Source: an uncultured Pseudomonadales bacterium (GTDB lineage Bacteria; Patescibacteriota; Microgenomatia; UBA1400; PJMF01). Taken from it: a DNA stretch of 64,000 nt. Below, piece by piece: positions 22,149 through 52,835 of the stretch. A model generated the notes under the pieces. That model saw only the letters and a list, made by a program, of their open reading frames with translations. It had not been told where the DNA came from and made no database searches. The position numbers were made by a program, and so were the translations under genes. Each line of letters starts with the position of its first letter. Within the stretch, counting starts at the first letter, position 1. The stretch spans positions 159,349-223,348 of the forward strand of contig CAZOVA010000001.1 of NCBI GenBank assembly GCA_964583625.1. Reading direction: 5' to 3'.

Positions 22149-22365
22149 GTTTATGGACAGTGAAGGCTCTCGTTCTCTATATTACGAACAAAAAAAAGAG
22201 AATCTTAAGGAAAGTTTGATTTTCCAGTTTAGTAAAGTTCTTAGGTGGCTTTTGCAGACCGCGCTAATGGGTCTTAAGGCAATGATCAAAGCTTTAAGTG
22301 AAGCTTTGCAAATGTTCTTCCGTTTTTAGAGATTTTTTTGTTGTAGAATACAGGTATTATTGTTT

Positions 22366-22442
22366 GCGCCCATAGCTCAAGTGGTTAGAGCACCAAGCTT
22401 ATACCTTGGCGGTTCGAGGTTCGAGTCCTTGTGGGCGCACCA
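22366..22442 (+). tRNA. tRNA-Ile, anticodon TAT (UAU; decodes AUA)
   Basis: Acceptor GCGCCCA/TGGGCGC. Ile-like D-arm GCTCAAGTGGTTAGAGC. Anticodon stem CCAAG/CTTGG with loop CTTATAC. T-arm CGAGGTTCGAGTCCTTG. Discriminator A, CCA encoded. Confidence 0.85.
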
Positions 22443-23585: not shown

Positions 23586-23948
23586 TTAGTTTTCACTTTC
23601 CACTCGATCAACCACTGTTTTGCAATAAAGATATTTACTTTTATCGACTATTTTTTCCGCTAGATCTTTATTTTCGCCAGCCCGACTAGCTTCTTCATTG
23701 ACAGCTCCTAAATTTTGCCAGAGATTTTCCCCTCTTTGTGTTACATTCTTCAAACCACTACCAAAATTATCCATAAAGTTTTCTACTTGCTGTTCGTCAA
23801 CATTAAATTGCATACTTTTGCCACTTAGGCTAGCGAGAGGGAGAGAAACACAAGAACGTAGTTCTTTTTTAGTAAAAAAGTGATAGCCAAAAAATAATAC
23901 CAAAGCCAGTAAAACAATTTGCAAAATAAATCGAAAAATTTTTAACAT
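23586..23948 (-). CDS. Small N-terminally membrane-anchored hypothetical protein
   Basis: Single N-terminal TM, then a hydrophilic 95-aa domain. Immediately downstream (same strand) of the pilin-like array. Confidence 0.45.
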   Translation of the reverse strand: MLKIFRFILQIVLLALVLFFGYHFFTKKELRSCVSLPLASLSGKSMQFNVDEQQVENFMDNFGSGLKNVTQRGENLWQNLGAVNEEASRAGENKDLAEKIVDKSKYLYCKTVVDRVESEN

Positions 23949-23960
23949 ATGCGTTTTTAT

Positions 23961-24329
23961 TTAGAAACCAGGGTTGAGCTCATCAATACCTGCCACTCCT
24001 AAAACCAACTTCCACAAAGCAAAAGCAGAGGCAGTAATCAAGAGACCGATGGCAGCATAAACCATTCTGTCTCTTCCGACTGTCTTTTTACTGGTTTCTC
24101 CCGAAGAAGTGATTAGAGTGATTCCTCCCCAAATTAAAAAGAAGAGGGAAGTGACAGCTGCTCCAAAAAATATCAATTGGGCAATTTTTCCTACTAAGAT
24201 AGCCCAATTAATTGTTCCATCACTATAAATTCCGCCCGCTCCTTGGAGCAAGCTACTTCCTTCACCGCCAATTTGACCCAAAAGAACCTCATTTTCTTCA
24301 GCTTGTATGTCTTTTATTAAATTAATCAT
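23961..24329 (-). CDS. Pilin-like two-helix hairpin membrane protein, paralog 1 (TrbC/VirB2-type topology)
   Basis: ~40-aa hydrophilic N-terminus, TM1, basic loop (SSGETSKKTVGRDR), TM2, C-terminal ...ELNPGF. Shares N-terminal (L)IKDIQAEE and C-terminal LNPT motifs with the neighbours. Confidence 0.6.
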   Translation of the reverse strand: MINLIKDIQAEENEVLLGQIGGEGSSLLQGAGGIYSDGTINWAILVGKIAQLIFFGAAVTSLFFLIWGGITLITSSGETSKKTVGRDRMVYAAIGLLITASAFALWKLVLGVAGIDELNPGF

Positions 24330-24346
24330 TTTTACTCCTTTACTTT

Positions 24347-24721
24347 TTACTCAATAGTTGGGTTCAAGATAGCATCTGGACTGCCAAATAAAGCATTGCC
24401 TATCCAGCCAGCAATCATCCAAGCGGAAGCGACCAAAAGTAAACCCAAAGTGGTCCAAAGAATTCTTTTCATTTCTTCGGAAAAAACTTTTGGATCTCTT
24501 GCTCCTTGAACAATTTTTAAACCAGAAGTAATAATGGTAAAAAGAAACCAAATGCCAGCAATGACAGTTGCTAGTCCTAAGGCATTGTTGACAAAATTAA
24601 TTGGTCCTGTCAATTTCCCACCTTTTTCAATATCATCATAAGTATAGCCACCTCCTATTGGATCAATGGATCCAAAGATAGAACTTTCTGTAGCTTGAAT
24701 AGTTTTAATTAAGTTTAACAT
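24347..24721 (-). CDS. Pilin-like two-helix hairpin membrane protein, paralog 2
   Basis: Same architecture. Loop motif SGLKIVQGARDPKVFSEEMKRIL is shared nearly verbatim with paralog 3. Confidence 0.6.
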   Translation of the reverse strand: MLNLIKTIQATESSIFGSIDPIGGGYTYDDIEKGGKLTGPINFVNNALGLATVIAGIWFLFTIITSGLKIVQGARDPKVFSEEMKRILWTTLGLLLVASAWMIAGWIGNALFGSPDAILNPTIE

Positions 24722-24733
24722 ATTTTTTATTCC

Positions 24734-25405
24734 TCAAATACTGCCTCTTTCTTGTGTTTTTCCTGGCCCCTTGATAGTGGGCTTGAGTAAGAAATCTTCT
24801 TCACCATAGAAGGTTTTACTCACAAAGCCAACAATGATGTAAGCGAAAACTATTAATAATAATCCCAAAGAACTTAATAATAGACGCTTCATATTTTCTC
24901 CAAAGTTTTTTGGGTCTTTACCGCCGATGATCACTTGCACACCAGACCAAAGCATGATGATCAGTAAAATACTAGCGGTAATGATTACCAGAAAATTAAT
25001 GATTTTATTAATAAAAGGAGTAATGCCTGATAAACTTTGAAAGTCGGTGGCTGTTCCCTCTACGGGAGTGATTTGTCCATAAACATAATCACCATCTAGT
25101 GTTGGATTGACTTGATCTAAACAAAACCTAGTTTTTCTATAGGTAATTCTACCATTTTCCCTACACGAAACATTAATATCAGTATAGTTAGGATAACCAG
25201 CGCTACAATCCCCACTTTCATCAGGGCAACGAACATGGTCCTTAAGAGAGGCCGGAAAGGAAGCTGTAATTTCAGCGCAAAGATCTGGATCATCACAGTT
25301 TCTGAATGAACCCGTTCCCGTACCCTCTTCATTAAGAGAAAAGACTTTTCCATTAGCGATGAAGAAGAAAATAAATATCAATGAAAAAATAATGCTTTTT
25401 TTCAT
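24734..25405 (-). CDS. Pilin-like hairpin module fused to a signal-peptide-led Cys-rich N-terminal ectodomain, paralog 3
   Basis: Signal peptide MKKSIIFSLIFIFFFIANG. ~130-aa ectodomain with 7 Cys. C-terminal module WSGVQVIIGGKDPKNFGENMKRLL...LKPTIKG. Confidence 0.6.
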   Translation of the reverse strand: MKKSIIFSLIFIFFFIANGKVFSLNEEGTGTGSFRNCDDPDLCAEITASFPASLKDHVRCPDESGDCSAGYPNYTDINVSCRENGRITYRKTRFCLDQVNPTLDGDYVYGQITPVEGTATDFQSLSGITPFINKIINFLVIITASILLIIMLWSGVQVIIGGKDPKNFGENMKRLLLSSLGLLLIVFAYIIVGFVSKTFYGEEDFLLKPTIKGPGKTQERGSI

Positions 25406-25770
25406 AAAGCCTGGACTCCTGTAACTGTTTCAATAATTCTCACTATCCAATAAGCGGCTAACATAATCATTAAACCAATCACTCCAGTAGTCAAATATTG
25501 TCGCGTACTTTCTAGAGCTTTGGATTTATCCTTCATAAAAATCAACTTATATCCAGAAAAGAGAATTAAAGCAAAAAACAAAATACCGCCCAACATAATT
25601 AAGTTTTTAGCAATGATATTAATCATTGAGCCAGTACTACTATATACAGATCTAACTCTAGTGCCAGCAGTTTGATTGAGGAGAAAATCATTAAAATATT
25701 CATAGGTCTCACTATTGGCAGTAGGGGGGCCGATAGTGGCTTGAGCGGTAGCTTGAATAGCTTCTGTCAT
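25402..25770 (-). CDS. Pilin-like two-helix hairpin membrane protein, paralog 4 (identical to paralog 5)
   Basis: 122 aa. TM1-FSGYKLIFMKDKSK loop-TM2. ATGA-type overlaps with neighbours at both ends. Confidence 0.6.
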   Translation of the reverse strand: MTEAIQATAQATIGPPTANSETYEYFNDFLLNQTAGTRVRSVYSSTGSMINIIAKNLIMLGGILFFALILFSGYKLIFMKDKSKALESTRQYLTTGVIGLMIMLAAYWIVRIIETVTGVQAL

Positions 25771-26135
25771 AAAGCCTGGACTCCTGTAACTGTTTCAATA
25801 ATTCTCACTATCCAATAAGCGGCTAACATAATCATTAAACCAATCACTCCAGTAGTCAAATATTGTCGCGTACTTTCTAGAGCTTTGGATTTATCCTTCA
25901 TAAAAATCAACTTATATCCAGAAAAGAGAATTAAAGCAAAAAACAAAATACCGCCCAACATAATTAAGTTTTTAGCAATGATATTAATCATTGAGCCAGT
26001 ACTACTATATACAGATCTAACTCTAGTGCCAGCAGTTTGATTGAGGAGAAAATCATTAAAATATTCATAGGTCTCACTATTGGCAGTAGGGGGGCCGATA
26101 GTGGCTTGAGCGGTAGCTTGAATAGCTTCTGTCAT
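25767..26135 (-). CDS. Pilin-like two-helix hairpin membrane protein, paralog 5 (100% identical copy of paralog 4)
   Basis: Identical 122-aa translation. Part of an exact 365-bp tandem duplication. Confidence 0.55.
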   Translation of the reverse strand: MTEAIQATAQATIGPPTANSETYEYFNDFLLNQTAGTRVRSVYSSTGSMINIIAKNLIMLGGILFFALILFSGYKLIFMKDKSKALESTRQYLTTGVIGLMIMLAAYWIVRIIETVTGVQAL

Positions 26136-38251: not shown

Positions 38252-41044
38252 TTAATCGTTTTTGAATTTCAATTGAGTTTGGGTTTTAGCTTCAATTTCT
38301 GCTTGCCAACCGTGAGGAATGGTTTCTACTTCATAAGTAAACTCATCTCCTTCTTTCAAACCCAATTTTTTTCTTTCATCGGCAATTTTTCTCATCAGTT
38401 CTCTTGCTTCACCTTCATTAATTAATTCTTGAGTCAAAGTCAATTCAAAAACAGCAGTTTCTGCAAGATCTTTCTCTATTTTTGACAATTGTAAATTTTT
38501 AACATTGAGTTCAGCTTGCAAAATCTCTCTCGCTTCTTGATTTAAAATCACTGGCTCTTTCATTTTGAAAGTAACCAGACTTAATGGTTGGCGCAGTTTG
38601 AAGCCAGTAGCTTTTCTTGCACTTCTCCCAATTTCTAACATTTTTTTGAGTTGGTTAATTTGTTCAATTAAATCTTTATTCCCATCTTCCTCTTTACTAA
38701 CTGGCCAAGAAGTCAAATGAACACTTTCCAAACCACCACCTAAGTTTTGATAAAGAATCTCGGCGAAAAAAGGAATAAAGGGGGCAAAAAGCTGACTTAA
38801 GGTCATTAAAGCTTCTCCCAATATTTTTCTTGAAGCTGATTCATTTCTCAATCTTTCACGAGAGAGCCTCACGTAAAAAGTAGAGAGTTCTCCGACAAAC
38901 TCCACTAGTTCTCTACCAGCCCTAACAACATCATAGTCCTGTAAGCTTTTGGTCACTATAGCGGTCAATTTTTTAGTTTTAAAAGATAAATATTGGTCTA
39001 AAATAAAACTAGTGGATAGGCTCTCCCCTTCAGTTGGTAGACCGCCCCCAGCCTGGCGCCAAAAAACATAAATATTCCATAAAATTACCAATACTTGACG
39101 GCGCAAATGACCGACCTCTTGTTCGTCAAAGTTTAAATTTTCTGCCTTCATGACGGGTGAAGTCATAAGGTAAAGACGTAAAGCATCAGCCCCGTATTGA
39201 TCAAAAATTTTTTTAGGTTCAGGATAGTTTTTCAACTTCTTACTCATTTTTTTGCCGTCAGCTGCCAGAATAATGCCATTGACTAAGACATTTTTAAAAG
39301 CTGCTTCATTTTTTAAAGCAGTAGCCAAAACATGCAAAGTATAAAACCAGCCCCTGGTTTGATCTTGACCTTCAGAAATAAAATCAGCGGGGAAATTTTT
39401 TGCACTAGCATAGGGCATACTTCCACTTTCAAACCAGCAATCTAAAACCTCATTAACTCGATGATATTTTTCTCCATCCTTCTCAATGATAATTTTATCG
39501 ACAAAATGTTTATGAAGGTCTGTAATTTTCTGTCCACTAAGATTTTCTAACTCTGCTTTACTCCCCAAACATAAAAAATCTCCTTTTTCATTTTGCCACA
39601 AAGGCAATGGTGTTCCCCAAAAACGCTGGCGAGAAATTGCCCAATCACGAGCTCCCTGTAGCCACTTACCGAATCGTCCATGTTTTAGGTGCTCGGGTTG
39701 CCAGTTAATTTTTTCATTATTGATAATTAGTTGCTCTTTTAGAGCGGTGACTTTTACAAAGAAACTAGTAGTAGCATAATTCAACAAGGGGTGATCACAA
39801 CGCCAGCAATGAGGATAACTATGTTTAATTTTCTCCTTACGATAAAGACTATGGTTTTCATTAAGATACTTAATGATAGCAATATCAGTTGGTTGCACCG
39901 CTTTTTCCTCTATCTCTAGACGAACTTTCATGCCAGCAAAATCTGTCACTTCTTCAGTAAATTCCCCATCTAAATTAACATGATGTTTGAGTGGCAGACC
40001 TTCTCTTTTGCCCAGAGCAAAATCATTTTCTCCGTAAGCAGGAGCAATATGAACAATCCCAGTCCCGTCTTCCATAGTCACAAAATCAGCTTCAACAATA
40101 TGAAAAGCATTTTTAGTTTGAGCAAAATAAGGAAAAAGAGGCTCATACTCTCTTCCTACCAATTCACTACCTAATAAAGTTAATTTAATTTGATATGAGG
40201 TGTCTTTTACTACTTCCGCCAAACGTTTACTAGCAACAATCAAATATTCTTCTTCATTTTCAAGATCAAGAATACTATATTCCTCGTGAGGGTTGACAGC
40301 TAAAAGAAAGTTTCCTGGCAAAGTCCAAGCAGTAGTGGTCCAAGCTAAAAAAGCAGTTTTTTTGTCCAGACCTAAAGCGCTATAATTTTTTAATCTAAAT
40401 TTAACAAATAAGGATAAATCAGTGATATCCTTATAGCCCTGAGTAACCTCAAAGTTTGACAAAGGAGTGCTACACCGAGGGCAAATATGCATCGGCTTAT
40501 AGTCTTGATAGATCAAGTTTTTATCCCAAAGATTTTTGAAAACACCCCAAACACTCTCCATAAAATCTGGATCCATAGTTTTATAATCATGATCCATATC
40601 GACAAATCGACCCAACCGCCTAATAGTTTGTCGCCACTGATTGGCATAAGTCATTACTTTGCCCCGACAAGTTTCACAAAAATTATCGACGCCATAATTT
40701 TCAATATCTCGACGATTTTCAAGATTGAATTCTTTTTCGACAATATTTTCTATTGGCAATCCGTGGCAATCCCAACCCCAAGTTCTTTTAACATAACGAC
40801 CCAGCATTGTTTGAAAACGAGGGAAAAGATCTTTAGTTGTACTAGCTACCAGATGACCGTAATGAGGTAGCCCAGTGGCAAAAGGAGGCCCGTCATAAAA
40901 AATCCACGGTTGACCATTTTTAGTTTGGTCTAGACTTTTTTGAAAAATTTTCTTTTCCTCCCAATAATCAGCAATTTTTTCTTCCCATTGAGGAAAATCT
41001 GGTGTTTGGCTTAAATTTTTTATTTTTAAATCAGCTTTTTGCAT
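38252..41044 (-). CDS. ileS: Isoleucyl-tRNA synthetase, eukaryote/archaeal-like type 2 (start at ATG 41044; ORF-track 41101)
   Basis: HIGH (PFATGLPHYGHL), KMSKS (KMSKKLKN), editing domain, no C-terminal zinc finger of the type-1 enzymes. Confidence 0.9.
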   Translation of the reverse strand: MQKADLKIKNLSQTPDFPQWEEKIADYWEEKKIFQKSLDQTKNGQPWIFYDGPPFATGLPHYGHLVASTTKDLFPRFQTMLGRYVKRTWGWDCHGLPIENIVEKEFNLENRRDIENYGVDNFCETCRGKVMTYANQWRQTIRRLGRFVDMDHDYKTMDPDFMESVWGVFKNLWDKNLIYQDYKPMHICPRCSTPLSNFEVTQGYKDITDLSLFVKFRLKNYSALGLDKKTAFLAWTTTAWTLPGNFLLAVNPHEEYSILDLENEEEYLIVASKRLAEVVKDTSYQIKLTLLGSELVGREYEPLFPYFAQTKNAFHIVEADFVTMEDGTGIVHIAPAYGENDFALGKREGLPLKHHVNLDGEFTEEVTDFAGMKVRLEIEEKAVQPTDIAIIKYLNENHSLYRKEKIKHSYPHCWRCDHPLLNYATTSFFVKVTALKEQLIINNEKINWQPEHLKHGRFGKWLQGARDWAISRQRFWGTPLPLWQNEKGDFLCLGSKAELENLSGQKITDLHKHFVDKIIIEKDGEKYHRVNEVLDCWFESGSMPYASAKNFPADFISEGQDQTRGWFYTLHVLATALKNEAAFKNVLVNGIILAADGKKMSKKLKNYPEPKKIFDQYGADALRLYLMTSPVMKAENLNFDEQEVGHLRRQVLVILWNIYVFWRQAGGGLPTEGESLSTSFILDQYLSFKTKKLTAIVTKSLQDYDVVRAGRELVEFVGELSTFYVRLSRERLRNESASRKILGEALMTLSQLFAPFIPFFAEILYQNLGGGLESVHLTSWPVSKEEDGNKDLIEQINQLKKMLEIGRSARKATGFKLRQPLSLVTFKMKEPVILNQEAREILQAELNVKNLQLSKIEKDLAETAVFELTLTQELINEGEARELMRKIADERKKLGLKEGDEFTYEVETIPHGWQAEIEAKTQTQLKFKND

Positions 41045-41200
41045 TTTTATATTATAGCATGCAGGATCTTGAGAAATAAGCTTTGCGCTAATATTAAACA
41101 AAGTAAATAATTCACACTAATTTGATAAAACTGGACAAAGTTAAAGAGATTTGCACAACTTTTTATGTTTAGCAATCAAGAAATTTTGCCTTACAGTTTG

Positions 41201-44653: not shown

Positions 44654-47600
44654 ATGTCTGAACTAGCCTTACATTATGCGGGAATAGATGAAAAAGATTT
44701 TACTTTTAAAAAATCTGCCGACAAGAAAAAACAAAATTCTCAAAAAGAAGCAGAGATAACTGAAGAAGCCGAGGTTAGTCGTGAAATAGATTTTTATCTT
44801 CAACAAATCGACGATGAATGGGAAAAACCGCCTTCGACTTTGGAGGTTTTAAGCCCGGTTTTAGTTAAAGAAAAAGAGTTTTTTTCTGAGAAAGAAAAAG
44901 ATGTTGATATTAGTGATAAAATTGCTCAAGCAATTAATGATCAGTTCATCGCTAATAAGATAGAAACCAACTCAGAGGCAACTAGGTTTTTAACTGACCT
45001 GGGACAAAGAATGATTGAGGGGACAGAACTAAGTCAATTGCGGGTTTTTATTATTAAAAAAGGAGAAACAATTAATGCGAGTGCTTTCCCCGATGGGACA
45101 ATTTTTTTTACTCAGGCTTTGCTCAACTGTTTAGACACTGTTGATGAGATTGGAGCTGTTCTAGCTCACGAAATAGGTCATCTACTTAATAAAACCACCG
45201 TGAGCACTTATGGCAGTGAAAACTCAATTGGTCTAGGCTGGGCGCATGAAATGGCCAGTGACATCACTTCTCAATCTTTATTAGAAAAAGTTGGGCTTAA
45301 CTCTGGTGCTTTAGTGTCTGCTTTGAAAAAAATTGATGCAAAAGGCACAAAAGATGATACGTCAAGAAATAAAAGAGATATTGTTCATCAAAGTGCTCAA
45401 GCTAGAGCCTTTGAGTTTAAATTGGTTACGCAAAAACTAGACTCTCACACCAGCGATATTGATCAAACCCCCAAAGAACAATATGACTTTCTGCGCTCAG
45501 CAGAGATCCAGCCGACCAATTTTGAAATTTTGAAAAAAACTATCGATTTACGAAGCGAAGCTTTAATGACTCGAGTGCTAGAGAAGATGTCAGCCGAAGA
45601 CTTGGTTAAAACTAATCGTTTTTTGAGTGAATCTTTGAGTAAAAAGATCGAAGAGGAACAAGGTTTTTACGAGGAAACCCAAATTTATTATGATTTAGAA
45701 TCTGCTTTTATTCTTCAGACTAAAAAATCTTTAGATCAACTTTTGCAAAGAAGACTGGTCGCAGAATTGGATATCGATGAATCAGTGGCTAAGGCTATTT
45801 TTCTTATTAATGGAACTTCTAGAGAGTTTAATGATAAAGGATTAAGAGAGTTACAGCTTTTTAATTCATTTGAAGAAGTTTTGCAGGGTTTGGACGACCT
45901 ATCTTTTTGGGATAACTTTTTCAAACAAAAGAGAAATTTTTCTCCCTCTTTGCAGAAATTACTTTTCCAACCTTCGTCATATCATTATATAAATAAAGCT
46001 CCTAGAGCTCAATATCAAGAAATTTTTTTTGATCCCAAACGGTGTTTAGTAGCAGGAATGTTGAATTCTTCCTTCTATAGTTTAGAGCGTCAAAGCCCAG
46101 AAGAAGGAACTTTCTTTATTGATCCTAAAAAGTTTTTTATTCTATTTGATAGAATTTCTAATGAGCTCAATGAAGATATTAAAAAACATTTAATCGCAAG
46201 TTTTTTCTTTTTTTATTTTTATTCTAATTCTTTGGAAAATAGAGCAAAAATTTTCAGTTATGAAGAGCAAAAAGACTTTTTTACTGGGCTCAAAGCTAGA
46301 GGAATTAAATTTAATTTTATTAAGGAAAGAACAGACTCTGGTGAAAAAGGCCTAGAATTTGTAGAAAGCTTTTTTTCATCAAATACAATCGAAGCTTGGC
46401 GATTAGCTTATGGTGAATCAGCAGAACAAGACAATGAAGATGAGGGAATAGAAAAACTCTTTCAAGACTTTATTGATCAGCTCTCTTTTTTGGGGGGACA
46501 AAAAAATAGCGGTTCTTCCAAATCTTCACCTAAAGGTTTTACTCGTCAACTATCAGATTTTACGGAAAAAGTTCAAAATTTGCGCGTAAAAAGAGATATT
46601 TCTGATGAGAGTTGGGAAAAAATAATAACTGTTCTTAAAGAGAAACTGACAGCTCTTCATTTACCAGCCAGGGATCGCATTCTTGATCACGAAAACTTTT
46701 TTAGGCCAGTAGGACTAAAACATCAAATTGAAAATGAATCAGTTCAGCAGGAAAACCAAAAAGTTTTTGAATTTAAGACAGCTCTTTATATTTTCACCGT
46801 TTTGGATTGTCGAGAAAAAAACCAGCAAACTAGCCGACTAGCTAAGTTTTTAGCCGAATCGGATCTAAACTTTGAGACTTATGACTGGAAACAGCTTATT
46901 TATTTACTTCAGGGTATTTGGGCAAAAAAATTTCAAATGAGAACCTTTTTACAATCGGAACTTGGGTCAGAGGGAACTTTGCCTCCTTTTGGGTTTAGTG
47001 GGAACTATGATTTTACTCAATTGGAGAGTTTGTTACCAATTAAAATTCTTTTGGAAAAAATTGATCAAGCTTTTGTGCCCGCCGAAAACTTGGAAAAATT
47101 TTTAGTGTTAATAAAAGAGAAAAAAGACTTTTTAAATAATTTTTATCTTCCGAACTCGCCTCATATCTCTCCTGATGATGAGAATCTTTTTGATGACTCT
47201 TGGCACGAAATTTATTTTTGGAAAAATGAAAGAGAAAATCTTCTTTCTTTAATTCAAAATCTTGATCTTAGTAAAGAAAAAGCGACCGATTTCCCCACGA
47301 TTATTAATCTAATCACAGAGATCCTACCCAATGATGCTTCTTTGTCAGAGGTAAAAAATAAACTAACTTTGGCTTATCTGCGACAGAAAGAAATTCCCTT
47401 TGATCAAAGAGCAGACTTTTTCTTTCAGCAGACCGATTCAGAACTAGAGGGGGTAGAAATTCTAGCTAGCGAGATTGACGACTTAGCTGTTTATAAAAAT
47501 TTTAAAAGTAAAATAGACGCTTATCGAAAACGTTGGCAAAAAGAAAAAAAAGATCTTTCTTTGATAGCCTTAGCAGACTTTTTTTCCAGTTTTTTTAAAG

Positions 47601-49684
47601 ATCAAATTAAGGTTTTTCAAACAGCCATTCCCGAGCAAAAATTTATCAAAGAGCAGAATAATCAGCTACTCCTTCGATGGCTTGAGCTTTATGATGATAG
47701 ATTTGATCAAAAAACAGAAAAATTTTTTTTCAAAAGAGAAGGAGGACTTCAGATTAGATCTTTGGCAGATATTTATATTACCTTAAATAATTTGTCCGCT
47801 AAAGAGCGTGGCTTATTAATTAATAAGCTACTCAATGACACCAATGGCTCTCTCACTAGCCAAGAAAGACGCTTTCAGTTAGCAAAAATTGTCGACCAAG
47901 TAATTAATCTTGATCAAGATCAATTTATCACTCAAATGGTCACTATTTTAGTTGGTAAAGGAAAGGCAGAAAGCATTAGCTTGCCCTTGCTAGCTCTTTT
48001 TCAACCACTAATATTTAAAAATTTACAAACAGAAAACCTGCAGGCTTCTCGCTTTTTGAATGATATTAGAGAACAAACAGTGACTGAAATTCAAACTAAA
48101 AGAAAATTGACCAAAAAGGAAGCTGAAACAGTAATAAAACAGGAACTAATTGAACCATTGCTTTCTTCAGAAAAAAGTCTGATTAATGAAACGGTCTTGT
48201 CTTTTGATCCAGAATATAGTGAGAGACAAGATCTAGCAAGAAAGATTGATTATATAGCTAATAGCTCCACGAGAGACATAACTTTCTTTGGGCCAGATTA
48301 TATTCATCAACCAGAATCAAGAGCGGCTCTTTTAGCTCAGGAAAGTAATGAAGCTTATCATTTTATTTTTCAAACCCTTCTAGCTAAAATCAAACTTTTG
48401 GAAGAAACCGCAGAGAGGGAACCAGAAGCAGAAAAGGTGGTTGAAAATCAACAAATTGAAGCTATTGTTGGGAGTTTGGAGGCGGGCGGAGCAGTTATGG
48501 TGCGCCAATTGCAATTAGCAACCCAATTTGTCAAATTTGACTCTGCTTGGCAAAAAAGATTGAGTCGGACTTTGGATAGTAATCCAGGATTAAGTAAACT
48601 GGAGGCTTGGCAAAATCTTTACCATTGGACCATTGAGGTCAAACCAGAAAATGAGCAAGAGAAAAAAGAGCAATTGGAATTACAGGAGCTCTTTCAGCAT
48701 TACCGTTTGGGTCAAAAAGTGGGCGGAGGTAGTTTGAATACTATCTTTGAACTCATTCCTTTGAACCCCGAAAGTCATCCACCGGCAGTGATTAGAATTC
48801 AGAACCCCAATGTAGCCGCCAATGTTATGGATATGTCTCAAACTCTAGCTGAAGCCTATGACGCTCTAAAAGAGAATCCCAGTCTGAAAAAAGAAGCTCG
48901 GATTGGAGCGATGATCAATGATCTATCGAGAAAATGGTGCTTATCCGACATTAGAGACCCTCGTTTTCTAGATGATGATAATCAATTTCGACTGGTTTTA
49001 GCTGCTTTTCGTCCTAGTGATGAAGGAGCAGTTGTCTCTGCTCCAGAATTAGGGCTGACTCAGGCTAAAGTTAAAGTGGAACAATTAGCTCCAGGGGAAA
49101 CTTTGAATAAACTTTTAACTAGCCCAGACATCAGCGAAGAAGACAAAAATCGTTTGAGAAAAACCTTTTGTGAGCTTTTTCTTCATCAGTTGGATTTTGA
49201 AAAAAACAAAGTAGTGAACAGTCAAGGGAGAGAAGAAATTATTGTCCATTCCGATCAACATTTGGGAAATTATATGGCAGAGATTTTACCAGATGGTTCA
49301 ATTAATTTTTCTGTGATTGATCGCAATATGTATTTGCATTTGGAGGCGGATGATGTGCAAGTTATAAAAACTCTCTTATCTGAAAAGGGTGGCGGTTTAG
49401 AGTTTGTCCGGAAATTGGTTGACCGTGTTTTAGATATTAATAAAATTCTTAATCCAGTAGATCGTAAAAAAACTCAAGACCAGATTCGAAAAAAACTAAT
49501 TTTAAATGGGGTGAAAAATATTTTCCACCGTCGTCAAGGAGATGATCTAGAACAATTACAAATTATTTTTGAACAACTAGCTTTGCAGAACTATGAGATT
49601 CCTCTCAACTTGCAACTGATGATTCGTAATACCACCGCTTATAAAAATATCAAAGCTGAGTTGGACCGGGCAGAAAAAGACTAA
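44654..49684 (+). CDS. Giant (1676 aa) cytoplasmic multidomain protein: N-terminal M48-type Zn-metallopeptidase domain ... long helical middle ... C-terminal ABC1/UbiB-type atypical protein-kinase-like domain
   Basis: M48 signature NASAFPDGTIFFTQALL..DEIGAVLAHEIGHLL plus downstream HEMASD (third ligand) at ~44.95-45.3 kb. ABC1 motifs VRQLQLATQ..LDSNP, LGQKVGGGSLNTIFE, AVIRIQNP, HSDQHLGN...SVIDRN at ~48.45-49.45 kb. No TM segments. Confidence 0.65.
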   Translation: MSELALHYAGIDEKDFTFKKSADKKKQNSQKEAEITEEAEVSREIDFYLQQIDDEWEKPPSTLEVLSPVLVKEKEFFSEKEKDVDISDKIAQAINDQFIANKIETNSEATRFLTDLGQRMIEGTELSQLRVFIIKKGETINASAFPDGTIFFTQALLNCLDTVDEIGAVLAHEIGHLLNKTTVSTYGSENSIGLGWAHEMASDITSQSLLEKVGLNSGALVSALKKIDAKGTKDDTSRNKRDIVHQSAQARAFEFKLVTQKLDSHTSDIDQTPKEQYDFLRSAEIQPTNFEILKKTIDLRSEALMTRVLEKMSAEDLVKTNRFLSESLSKKIEEEQGFYEETQIYYDLESAFILQTKKSLDQLLQRRLVAELDIDESVAKAIFLINGTSREFNDKGLRELQLFNSFEEVLQGLDDLSFWDNFFKQKRNFSPSLQKLLFQPSSYHYINKAPRAQYQEIFFDPKRCLVAGMLNSSFYSLERQSPEEGTFFIDPKKFFILFDRISNELNEDIKKHLIASFFFFYFYSNSLENRAKIFSYEEQKDFFTGLKARGIKFNFIKERTDSGEKGLEFVESFFSSNTIEAWRLAYGESAEQDNEDEGIEKLFQDFIDQLSFLGGQKNSGSSKSSPKGFTRQLSDFTEKVQNLRVKRDISDESWEKIITVLKEKLTALHLPARDRILDHENFFRPVGLKHQIENESVQQENQKVFEFKTALYIFTVLDCREKNQQTSRLAKFLAESDLNFETYDWKQLIYLLQGIWAKKFQMRTFLQSELGSEGTLPPFGFSGNYDFTQLESLLPIKILLEKIDQAFVPAENLEKFLVLIKEKKDFLNNFYLPNSPHISPDDENLFDDSWHEIYFWKNERENLLSLIQNLDLSKEKATDFPTIINLITEILPNDASLSEVKNKLTLAYLRQKEIPFDQRADFFFQQTDSELEGVEILASEIDDLAVYKNFKSKIDAYRKRWQKEKKDLSLIALADFFSSFFKDQIKVFQTAIPEQKFIKEQNNQLLLRWLELYDDRFDQKTEKFFFKREGGLQIRSLADIYITLNNLSAKERGLLINKLLNDTNGSLTSQERRFQLAKIVDQVINLDQDQFITQMVTILVGKGKAESISLPLLALFQPLIFKNLQTENLQASRFLNDIREQTVTEIQTKRKLTKKEAETVIKQELIEPLLSSEKSLINETVLSFDPEYSERQDLARKIDYIANSSTRDITFFGPDYIHQPESRAALLAQESNEAYHFIFQTLLAKIKLLEETAEREPEAEKVVENQQIEAIVGSLEAGGAVMVRQLQLATQFVKFDSAWQKRLSRTLDSNPGLSKLEAWQNLYHWTIEVKPENEQEKKEQLELQELFQHYRLGQKVGGGSLNTIFELIPLNPESHPPAVIRIQNPNVAANVMDMSQTLAEAYDALKENPSLKKEARIGAMINDLSRKWCLSDIRDPRFLDDDNQFRLVLAAFRPSDEGAVVSAPELGLTQAKVKVEQLAPGETLNKLLTSPDISEEDKNRLRKTFCELFLHQLDFEKNKVVNSQGREEIIVHSDQHLGNYMAEILPDGSINFSVIDRNMYLHLEADDVQVIKTLLSEKGGGLEFVRKLVDRVLDINKILNPVDRKKTQDQIRKKLILNGVKNIFHRRQGDDLEQLQIIFEQLALQNYEIPLNLQLMIRNTTAYKNIKAELDRAEKD

Positions 49685-52304: not shown

Positions 52305-52835
52305 ATGATTCAAAAAGATTTCATCAATGCCGACCAACTTAATCTTGATAGTTTTGCTTTAGCCAAGAAAATCTATGATTCTGGTTTTCGCCCCGACGCC
52401 ATCATTGCTCTTTGGCGCGGTGGTTCACTGGTTGGGATTGCAGTACAAGAATTTTTTGCTTATAAAAAAGTACCTCATTATCACAGCATCGTCAAAACTT
52501 TTGCTTATCAAGGGATTGATCAGAGGAGTGAGGTGGAAGTGGAGCCCATGGAGCATATCTTTTCCCATCTCTCAAAGAAGACAAAAGTTCTTCTAGTTGA
52601 CGACATTTTTGACACTGGCTCTACCATACAAGCAGTGAAAAAAGCCTTAGAGCCGCTAGTGGCCCAAATAAAAACAGCCGTTGTTTTTTATAAGCCTAAG
52701 AGACGCTTGGTTGATTTTTCCCCAGACTATTATTTGCACGAAACAGATAGCTGGTTGGTTTTACCTCACGAACTACTAGGTTTAACTGATGAAGAGCTGA
52801 AAATCAAAGATAGTCGGTTGCATAAACTTTTATAA
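52305..52835 (+). CDS. Type I phosphoribosyltransferase (purine salvage, Hpt/Xpt-like)
   Basis: PRPP-binding motif [14 protein letters not shown]. 176 aa. Confidence 0.7.

Follow-up and report, generated by a model that had tools for sequence, protein, structure and literature searches.

Most bacteria read AUA by means of the essential enzyme TilS, which turns the encoded C34 of tRNA-Ile2(CAU) into lysidine. Eukaryotic tRNA-Ile(UAU) genes carry an intron that directs pseudouridylation, and the anticodon of the cytoplasmic minor tRNA-Ile is pseudouridine-A-pseudouridine. Lineages without the lysidine system have also been described. Bifidobacterium and Neorickettsia have no tilS and combine a tRNA-Ile(UAU) with an isoleucyl-tRNA synthetase (IleRS) of the eukaryote type, IleRS2 (PMC3575796), a type that naturally serves the minor tRNA-Ile with a UAU-derived anticodon in eukaryotes (PMC3575796). 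In M. mobile, replacement of a Trp in the Zn domain of IleRS1 by Arg provides a different route to charging a tRNA-Ile with a UAU anticodon, and a tRNA-Ile(UAU) is likewise found in archaea that lack tiaS (PMC3575796).

The window, meaning the whole 64-kb stretch of DNA analysed here, was found to include a real, conserved chromosomal tRNA-Ile gene with a UAU anticodon (77 bases, GCGCCCATAGCTCAAGTGGTTAGAGCACCAAGCTTATACCTTGGCGGTTCGAGGTTCGAGTCCTTGTGGGCGCACCA). With a probability of about 0.85, it is a functional, vertically inherited minor tRNA-Ile(UAU), which would be expressed, charged by IleRS2 and used to read AUA without lysidine. The features of the gene are as follows.

22366..22442, forward strand: tRNA-Ile(UAU) gene, with a 74-nt body to discriminator A73 followed by an encoded CCA (ARAGORN, Rfam and stem pairing).
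22397..22403, forward strand: anticodon loop CTTATAC, containing the TAT anticodon.
22399..22401, forward strand: anticodon TAT, positions 34-36, read from the sequence (ARAGORN places the anticodon at gene position 35).

ARAGORN, which names the isotype from the anticodon alone, called a tRNA-Ile with anticodon tat at exactly 22366..22442 on the forward strand. The Rfam model RF00005 matched the same interval at full length (model positions 1-71) with 67.4 bits against a gathering score of 29 (E = 1.6e-12), and no non-canonical pairs were flagged. The cloverleaf parse accounts for 21 of 21 stem pairs, with a single G-U at 50:64, and is made up of an acceptor stem GCGCCCA/TGGGCGC, a D stem GCTC/GAGC, an anticodon stem CCAAG/CTTGG and a T stem CGAGG/CCTTG. 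The 7-nt loop C32-U33-U34-A35-U36-A37-C38 includes U33 and A37, and A37 directly follows U36, the arrangement expected for t6A. The sequence-only reading had proposed a tRNA-Ile whose UAU anticodon is encoded in the genome, and a check with ARAGORN; the scan returned the same coordinates, the fold bears the proposal out, and the loop, the anticodon stem and the other sequence details that it quoted are all correct. Nureki et al. are said to have reported, in 1994, an E. coli Ile identity set of A73, C4:G69, U12:A23, C29:G41, A37 and A38. A73, C4:G69, U12:A23 and A37 are present in the window tRNA, and A29:U41 and C38 replace C29:G41 and A38, though these rules were defined for IleRS1 and the IleRS of the window is of another type. 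ARAGORN identified two other tRNAs in the 64-kb window, Tyr-GTA and Thr-GGT.

The gene is located 217 bp downstream of pgk in the order recA-pgk-tRNA, with recA and an HlyD-ABC-FtsX export system upstream and a CAAX protease gene, followed by a cluster of T4SS_pilin (PF18895) paralogs, downstream. The GC content of the window is 36% and that around the tRNA is unremarkable. Stop codon use is standard, with TGA absent inside open reading frames (ORFs). The same neighbourhood, with proteins 45-64% identical, is present in two species-representative metagenome-assembled genomes (MAGs), L080 (Candidatus Paceibacterota) and L052, and their tRNA-Ile genes, 86-89% identical to that of the window, also have the UAU anticodon. 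Since such distant relatives share the neighbourhood, the tRNA is old and has been inherited vertically together with its UAU anticodon. On the basis of the PF18895 pilin paralogs, the source names of the IleRS homologues (mostly Patescibacteria, Pacebacteria, Woesebacteria, Microgenomates or Magasanikbacteria where named among the matches listed) and the synteny with the Paceibacterota MAG, the host is taken to be an ultra-small Patescibacteria (CPR) bacterium near Paceibacterota. One candidate control element precedes the gene.

22345..22350, forward strand: -10-like hexamer TAGAAT, 15 nt upstream of the mature 5' end, a putative promoter element judged from its sequence.

A scan for promoter and terminator consensus sequences near the tRNA revealed no better site; matches in the region were at chance level and none was convincing. 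Public gene calls place a 58-aa ORF with no family match between pgk and the tRNA (22153..22329, forward strand), and this ORF may be spurious or may overlap the tRNA promoter region. Other observations were made elsewhere in the window. Six small ORFs of 120-223 aa lie in a row on the reverse strand at 23586..26135, and three of these match T4SS_pilin (PF18895), two above the Pfam threshold and one below; we take this paralog cluster to be of the kind found at Patescibacteria pilin loci. A 1676-aa ORF (44654..49684, forward strand) has a Peptidase_M48-like stretch near its N-terminus as its sole recognisable part. Adjoining the tRNA-Tyr gene (359..444) is a gene (523..1584, forward strand) for a 353-aa class II aminoacyl-tRNA synthetase core (tRNA-synt_2, D/K/N type), which is too short to include an anticodon-binding domain and could be an EpmA/PoxA-like or AsnA-like paralog, not a true synthetase.

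The 3' end of the tRNA gene coincides with the edge of a mobile element in two independent assemblies, L001 and L002.

22437..22442, forward strand: mobile-element junction, from the alignment and flanking 22-mers, with the window representing the unoccupied site.

In L001 and L002, identity with the window stops after tRNA position 72 (..GGGCGC) and the sequence passes into a prophage-like element (L001, 12698..20006; L002, 12698..17870). Its genes encode a large serine integrase of 528 aa (phrog_95), an ImmA-like protease with an HTH repressor, a regulator resembling Cro and a DNA methyltransferase. At this junction the otherwise invariant discriminator A73 is changed to T and the encoded CCA is lost; integration of the element may thus damage the AUA decoder in strains of the L001/L002 type. 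The site is empty in the window and in 12 other assemblies. The attR end of the element was not found, as every contig with the downstream CAAX protease gene has an empty site.

The window was also found to carry an ileS gene, which had gone unmentioned in the sequence-only reading.

38252..41101, reverse strand: ileS, isoleucyl-tRNA synthetase of the eukaryote/archaeal type, IleRS2 (NCBIfam TIGR00392, 854.5 bits; PDB matches; ARD3 motif).
38375..38401, reverse strand: codons for residues 907-915 of the IleRS base-34 pocket, with A907, R910, K911 and L915 (alignment to 8C8V, 8WND and 9W01).

The public gene call predicts a protein of 930 aa, with a start 19 codons into the ORF. Its best PDB matches are human and yeast cytoplasmic IleRS at ~706 bits, versus 321 bits for S. 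aureus IleRS1, and its ARD3 motif, ARELMRKIADERKKLGL, aligns with those of P. megaterium, yeast and human IleRS2. No Zn-binding domain and no C-x-R-C-W motif is present in the window enzyme. In IleRS2, A35 and U36 are read by the motifs WNxYxF and YVRxxR of ARD1. The window enzyme has both, and from the motifs we infer that they correspond to N647, F651 and R721 of the P. megaterium enzyme. The IleRS2 type is the most informative companion feature of the tRNA-Ile(UAU).

In P. megaterium IleRS2, base 34 is read by a pocket made up of Q961, R964, K965 and L969, and the substitution Q961A lowers the efficiency on GAU tRNA ~ten-fold (bioRxiv 10.64898/2026.02.03.703510). R910, K911 and L915 are kept in the window enzyme, and the pocket Arg is invariant in 119 of 119 homologues, whereas A907 stands at the position of Q961, which is Gln in the P. 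megaterium, yeast and human enzymes. This column is Q in 65 of the 119 homologues, N in 31, A in 15, S in 4, and G and K in one each. Among the matches listed, this residue is A, S, N or G in the nearest relatives (P0002-P0021) and Q in nearly all of the more distant Patescibacteria IleRS2. By analogy with the P. megaterium enzyme, the change from Gln to Ala could relax the readout of the wobble base. A UAU-type tRNA is served by Gln-bearing eukaryotic enzymes as well; the change is therefore not a requirement, and it is an observation, not a mechanism.

When set beside the described systems, the window matches the Bifidobacterium/Neorickettsia route by its IleRS2 and its UAU tRNA; no tilS was found in the 64 kb. 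An encoded UAU on an Ile-like body, IleRS2 and a reduced-genome lineage are shared, but the phylum is different (Patescibacteria), and the Ala in place of Gln in the IleRS pocket may be a further difference. The anticodon and the reading of AUA without lysidine are common to the window and to tRNA-Ile2(UAU) of M. mobile. However, M. mobile IleRS1 has Arg865 in place of the Zn-domain Trp, and because the window IleRS has no Zn-binding domain this determinant cannot apply; assignment to the M. mobile sub-type (Arg or Lys for the Zn-domain Trp, W890 in S. aureus and W905 in E. coli) was therefore rejected, the window IleRS being of type 2. The eukaryotic cytoplasmic minor tRNA-Ile(UAU) shares both the anticodon sequence and the synthetase type, although the window gene is intronless with no Pus1-type system evident, and the eukaryotic IleRS keeps the pocket Gln. 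In the archaeal tRNA-Ile(UAU) the same encoded U34 takes the place of a modified C34, but in another domain and as a replacement for agmatidine and TiaS, not for lysidine and TilS. The canonical tRNA-Ile2(CAU) with TilS serves the same codon and amino acid in the same role of minor Ile acceptor. In the window base 34 is U, not C, and there is no TilS; as the base is T in all 14 assemblies of the locus and in all 120 listed metagenome tRNAs (see below), the canonical lysidine system was rejected for this tRNA. The switch from Met to Ile identity by TilS is not needed, because base 34 is U, not C.

The prevalence of such genes was examined in a collection with one genome per species (185,579 species) using a pattern in which a CUUAUA loop comes after an Ile-like D-arm. 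At least 120 matches were obtained, and ARAGORN called a tRNA-Ile(tat) at 102 of the 120 loci listed. A hand tally of the record titles placed the matches listed in the following label groups.

CPR/Patescibacteria: 57 (Saccharibacteria, Parcubacteria/Paceibacterota, Nomura-, Taylor-, Uhr-, Kaiser-, Magasanik-, Dojka-, Curtiss-, Shapiro-, Kuenen-, Woese-, Peri- and Moraniibacteria).
Archaea, mostly DPANN: 20.
Unclassified "bacterium": 18.
Other (Chloroflexota, Ignavibacteria, Actinomyces, Planctomycetota, "Gammaproteobacteria" and others): 25.

A set of 96 unique tRNA(UAU) sequences has A73 throughout (96/96) and compensatory changes in every stem; U12:A23 was fixed by the search pattern in this set and hence provides no evidence. 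A UAU anticodon had been described in the sequence-only reading as rare and known from only a few lineages. Taniguchi et al. 2013 listed nine bacterial species without tilS, in three clades, and cited 371 unique tDNA-Ile(TAT) from metagenomes (PMC3575796). Together with the species-representative matches and at least 120 metagenome tRNAs, these numbers contradict that description, which is true for cultured bacteria in 2013 and not for today's genome collections. Both in CPR bacteria and in DPANN archaea, the UAU solution seems to be common. As no paper connecting lysidine with CPR/Patescibacteria was found in the open-access literature, the prevalence of tRNA-Ile(UAU) in CPR may be under-described; the papers listed by a wider literature search on tilS and tiaS do not mention tilS.

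Several further observations were made on the loci fetched. CPR-like tRNA-Ile(UAU) genes are present in TPA_asm MAGs labelled Gammaproteobacteria or Pseudomonadales (L052, L008, L028, L031, L045, L064, L084, L095, L113 and L126), and L052 carries the Pseudomonadales label yet has CPR-type synteny and protein similarity to the window; these labels therefore look unreliable. In two Actinomyces loci (L015, 2809.., sp. ZJ308; L112, sp. oral taxon 170), the tRNA-Ile(UAU) is 95 nt long with ~20 nt extra after the anticodon stem (GTGTCGTGCCTGATAAGCACAAGG region), which might represent a variable arm of unusual length or an intervening sequence. A ValRS-like gene adjoins the tRNA-Ile(UAU) in the CPR genomes L018, L057, L079, L105 and L125, a context that differs from that in the window (pgk). 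These neighbours had come up as ileS by tblastn and were rejected as such on their ValRS-like C-termini, and the only true ileS neighbour among the fetched loci is in an archaeon (L059). The commonest neighbouring tRNAs across the fetched loci were tRNA-Val(GAC/UAC), with 27 calls.

AUA codons are in regular use in the window, where 57 non-overlapping ORFs contain 170 of them (8.8 per 1000 codons), including those in recA, pgk, secA, ileS, pnp and gltX. The earlier statement that AUA codons are abundant is overstated, as AUA is the rarest Ile codon with 11.5% of the total (AUU, 69.7%; AUC, 18.8%). A usage of 8.8 per 1000 falls in the "medium" band of PMC12514573.

Other explanations of the gene were weighed against this reading. 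As one C-to-T change turns CAT into TAT, the true anticodon might be CAT, belonging to a tRNA-Ile2 or a tRNA-Met, with the T arising from a sequencing or assembly error or from a rare strain polymorphism. Base 34 is T in 14 of 14 independent assemblies of the locus, which derive from differing samples and pipelines (ENA and Logan samples). Metagenome contigs were also scanned with a pattern retaining the D-arm, an anticodon stem CCNAG/CTNGG and a loop CT-N-ATAC in which position 34 was left free. This gave at least 120 matches, and all 120 of those listed have T with no C, so that among the matches listed a tRNA body of the window type occurs solely as a UAU species. ARAGORN calls from the listed genome-scan loci were tat in 107 of 107. 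Neither a scanner nor an independent assembly gives another anticodon, such as might follow from the sequencing error in the loop that had been considered earlier, and an error or strain polymorphism is refuted by these data, its chance being negligible. The exact window tRNA had no match in JGI metagenomes and is absent from the matches listed in the species-representative scan, in which the nearest is 89% identical. It is also very improbable that an amino acid different from Ile, such as Met, is loaded onto the UAU tRNA, or that this is a tRNA-like RNA with no role in translation. AUA does mean Met in some mitochondrial codes, the isotype was named by ARAGORN without an isotype-specific model, and two of the E. 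coli Ile identity elements are missing. However, when the window IleRS was aligned with 119 homologues and the columns under its own codons were scored, those under its AUA codons were occupied by I in 23%, V in 29% and L in 9% of cases and by M in none (0%; six codons, of which two fall in poorly aligned columns), whereas those under its AUG codons were 60% M. Judged from these six ileS codons, AUA is an Ile-type codon in this genome. Further points against a different meaning are A73 in 96 of 96 family members, C4:G69 in the window tRNA and in 68 of the 96, the placing of A37 after U36, and the window ORFs, which show neither recoding of TGA nor another departure from the code. tRNAs for rare codons are frequent in phages, and a prophage-like element abuts the tRNA in both L001 and L002, as might be seen if the gene had been supplied by a phage or mobile element and stood outside the decoding set of the host. 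This origin has hardly any probability, as the tRNA falls on the chromosomal side of the junction, every assembly with an empty site has it, recA-pgk and the CAAX protease gene flank it at unremarkable GC, and both tRNA and neighbourhood are kept in relatives at 45-64% protein identity. The tRNA serves the element as an attachment site and is not part of its cargo.

A more substantial alternative, though one given somewhat less than an even chance, is that the genome also has TilS and a tRNA-Ile2(CAU), which would make the UAU tRNA a second and partly redundant reader of AUA and the decoding strategy not really distinct. A redundant reader of this kind has been proposed for Lactobacillus casei, Cyanothece and Ferrimonas. 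Bacteria with both systems are described (PMC3575796), and the part of the genome inspected is 64 kb. In this window, no ORF with a PP-loop (SGGxDS), no TilS among the ORFs annotated with Pfam or NCBIfam and no CAU-type tRNA-Ile (ARAGORN) was found. There was also no PP-loop protein in 1.6 Mb around the tRNA-Ile(UAU) of ~240 other genomes or contigs, a comparison of low power as ~1.6 would be expected if all had tilS. The CAT tRNAs that lie beside TAT tRNAs elsewhere were considered as Ile2 paralogs and rejected, being 57-72% identical and of the initiator or elongator Met types. In many bacteria, tilS, hpt and ftsH are linked. An hpt-like phosphoribosyltransferase gene follows pnp in the window (52305..52835, forward strand) with no tilS or ftsH nearby, which is weak evidence against a TilS in this genome. 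Southlakia, a cultured CPR member of the Saccharibacteria, has TilS beside FtsH, and CPR are therefore not uniformly free of tilS. Its gene table includes one tRNA-Ile only, and this hints that TilS and tRNA-Ile(UAU) tend to exclude each other. On balance, we lean slightly towards a genome without tilS in which the tRNA-Ile(UAU) is the sole AUA decoder.

If the gene is the functional minor tRNA-Ile favoured here, it would be transcribed from an AT-rich promoter with a short leader and processed at its 5' end, CCA addition being presumably unnecessary, and A37 would be modified to t6A. IleRS2, the single visible IleRS of the genome, would charge it with isoleucine, probably reading A35 and U36 via ARD1 and base 34 via the Arg-centred pocket of ARD3. 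U34 would then form a Watson-Crick pair with AUA and the charged tRNA would insert Ile at ~1% of codons. The risk at AUG is a U-G wobble, and the simplest expectation by precedent would be that U34 is unmodified and AUG is discriminated against. In M. mobile, tRNA-Ile with an unmodified U34 binds AUA strongly and AUG weakly, with the ribosome contributing to the discrimination (PMC3575796). In a suppressor of a B. subtilis tilS deletion, tRNA-Ile with an unmodified U34 also shows strong binding to AUA and weak binding to AUG (PMC3919564). No gene for an enzyme modifying U34 or C34 was found by ORF annotation of the 64-kb window, which is part of the genome. By analogy with these two cases, an unmodified U34 with ribosomal discrimination against AUG is the likely working model, in which the state of U34 and the avoidance of AUG misreading would both follow the precedents.

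The window gene is an ordinary example of the known lysidine-independent AUA decoder associated with IleRS2 and will not surprise a specialist. It is of modest interest for how widely this solution seems to occur in CPR and DPANN, for its pairing here with a eukaryote-type IleRS, for the altered wobble-base pocket in the clade and for a tRNA 3' end that serves a prophage-like element as its integration site. A broader proposal, which we consider unlikely, is that an encoded U34 tRNA-Ile has broadly replaced lysidine in CPR and, in parallel, agmatidine in DPANN, and that the window clade has remodelled the base-34 pocket of IleRS2 (Gln to Ala, Ser, Asn or Gly). If true, this would be the largest radiation with AUA decoding free of modification, and the pocket change would be a second, independent protein-level adaptation to UAU, analogous to the Trp-to-Arg change in M. 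mobile IleRS1. A classic weak point of the genetic code is that AUA has to be read as Ile while the misreading of AUG (Met) is avoided. Each lineage free of TilS shows how tRNA, synthetase and ribosome can co-adapt, and marks TilS as a drug target that is not universal.
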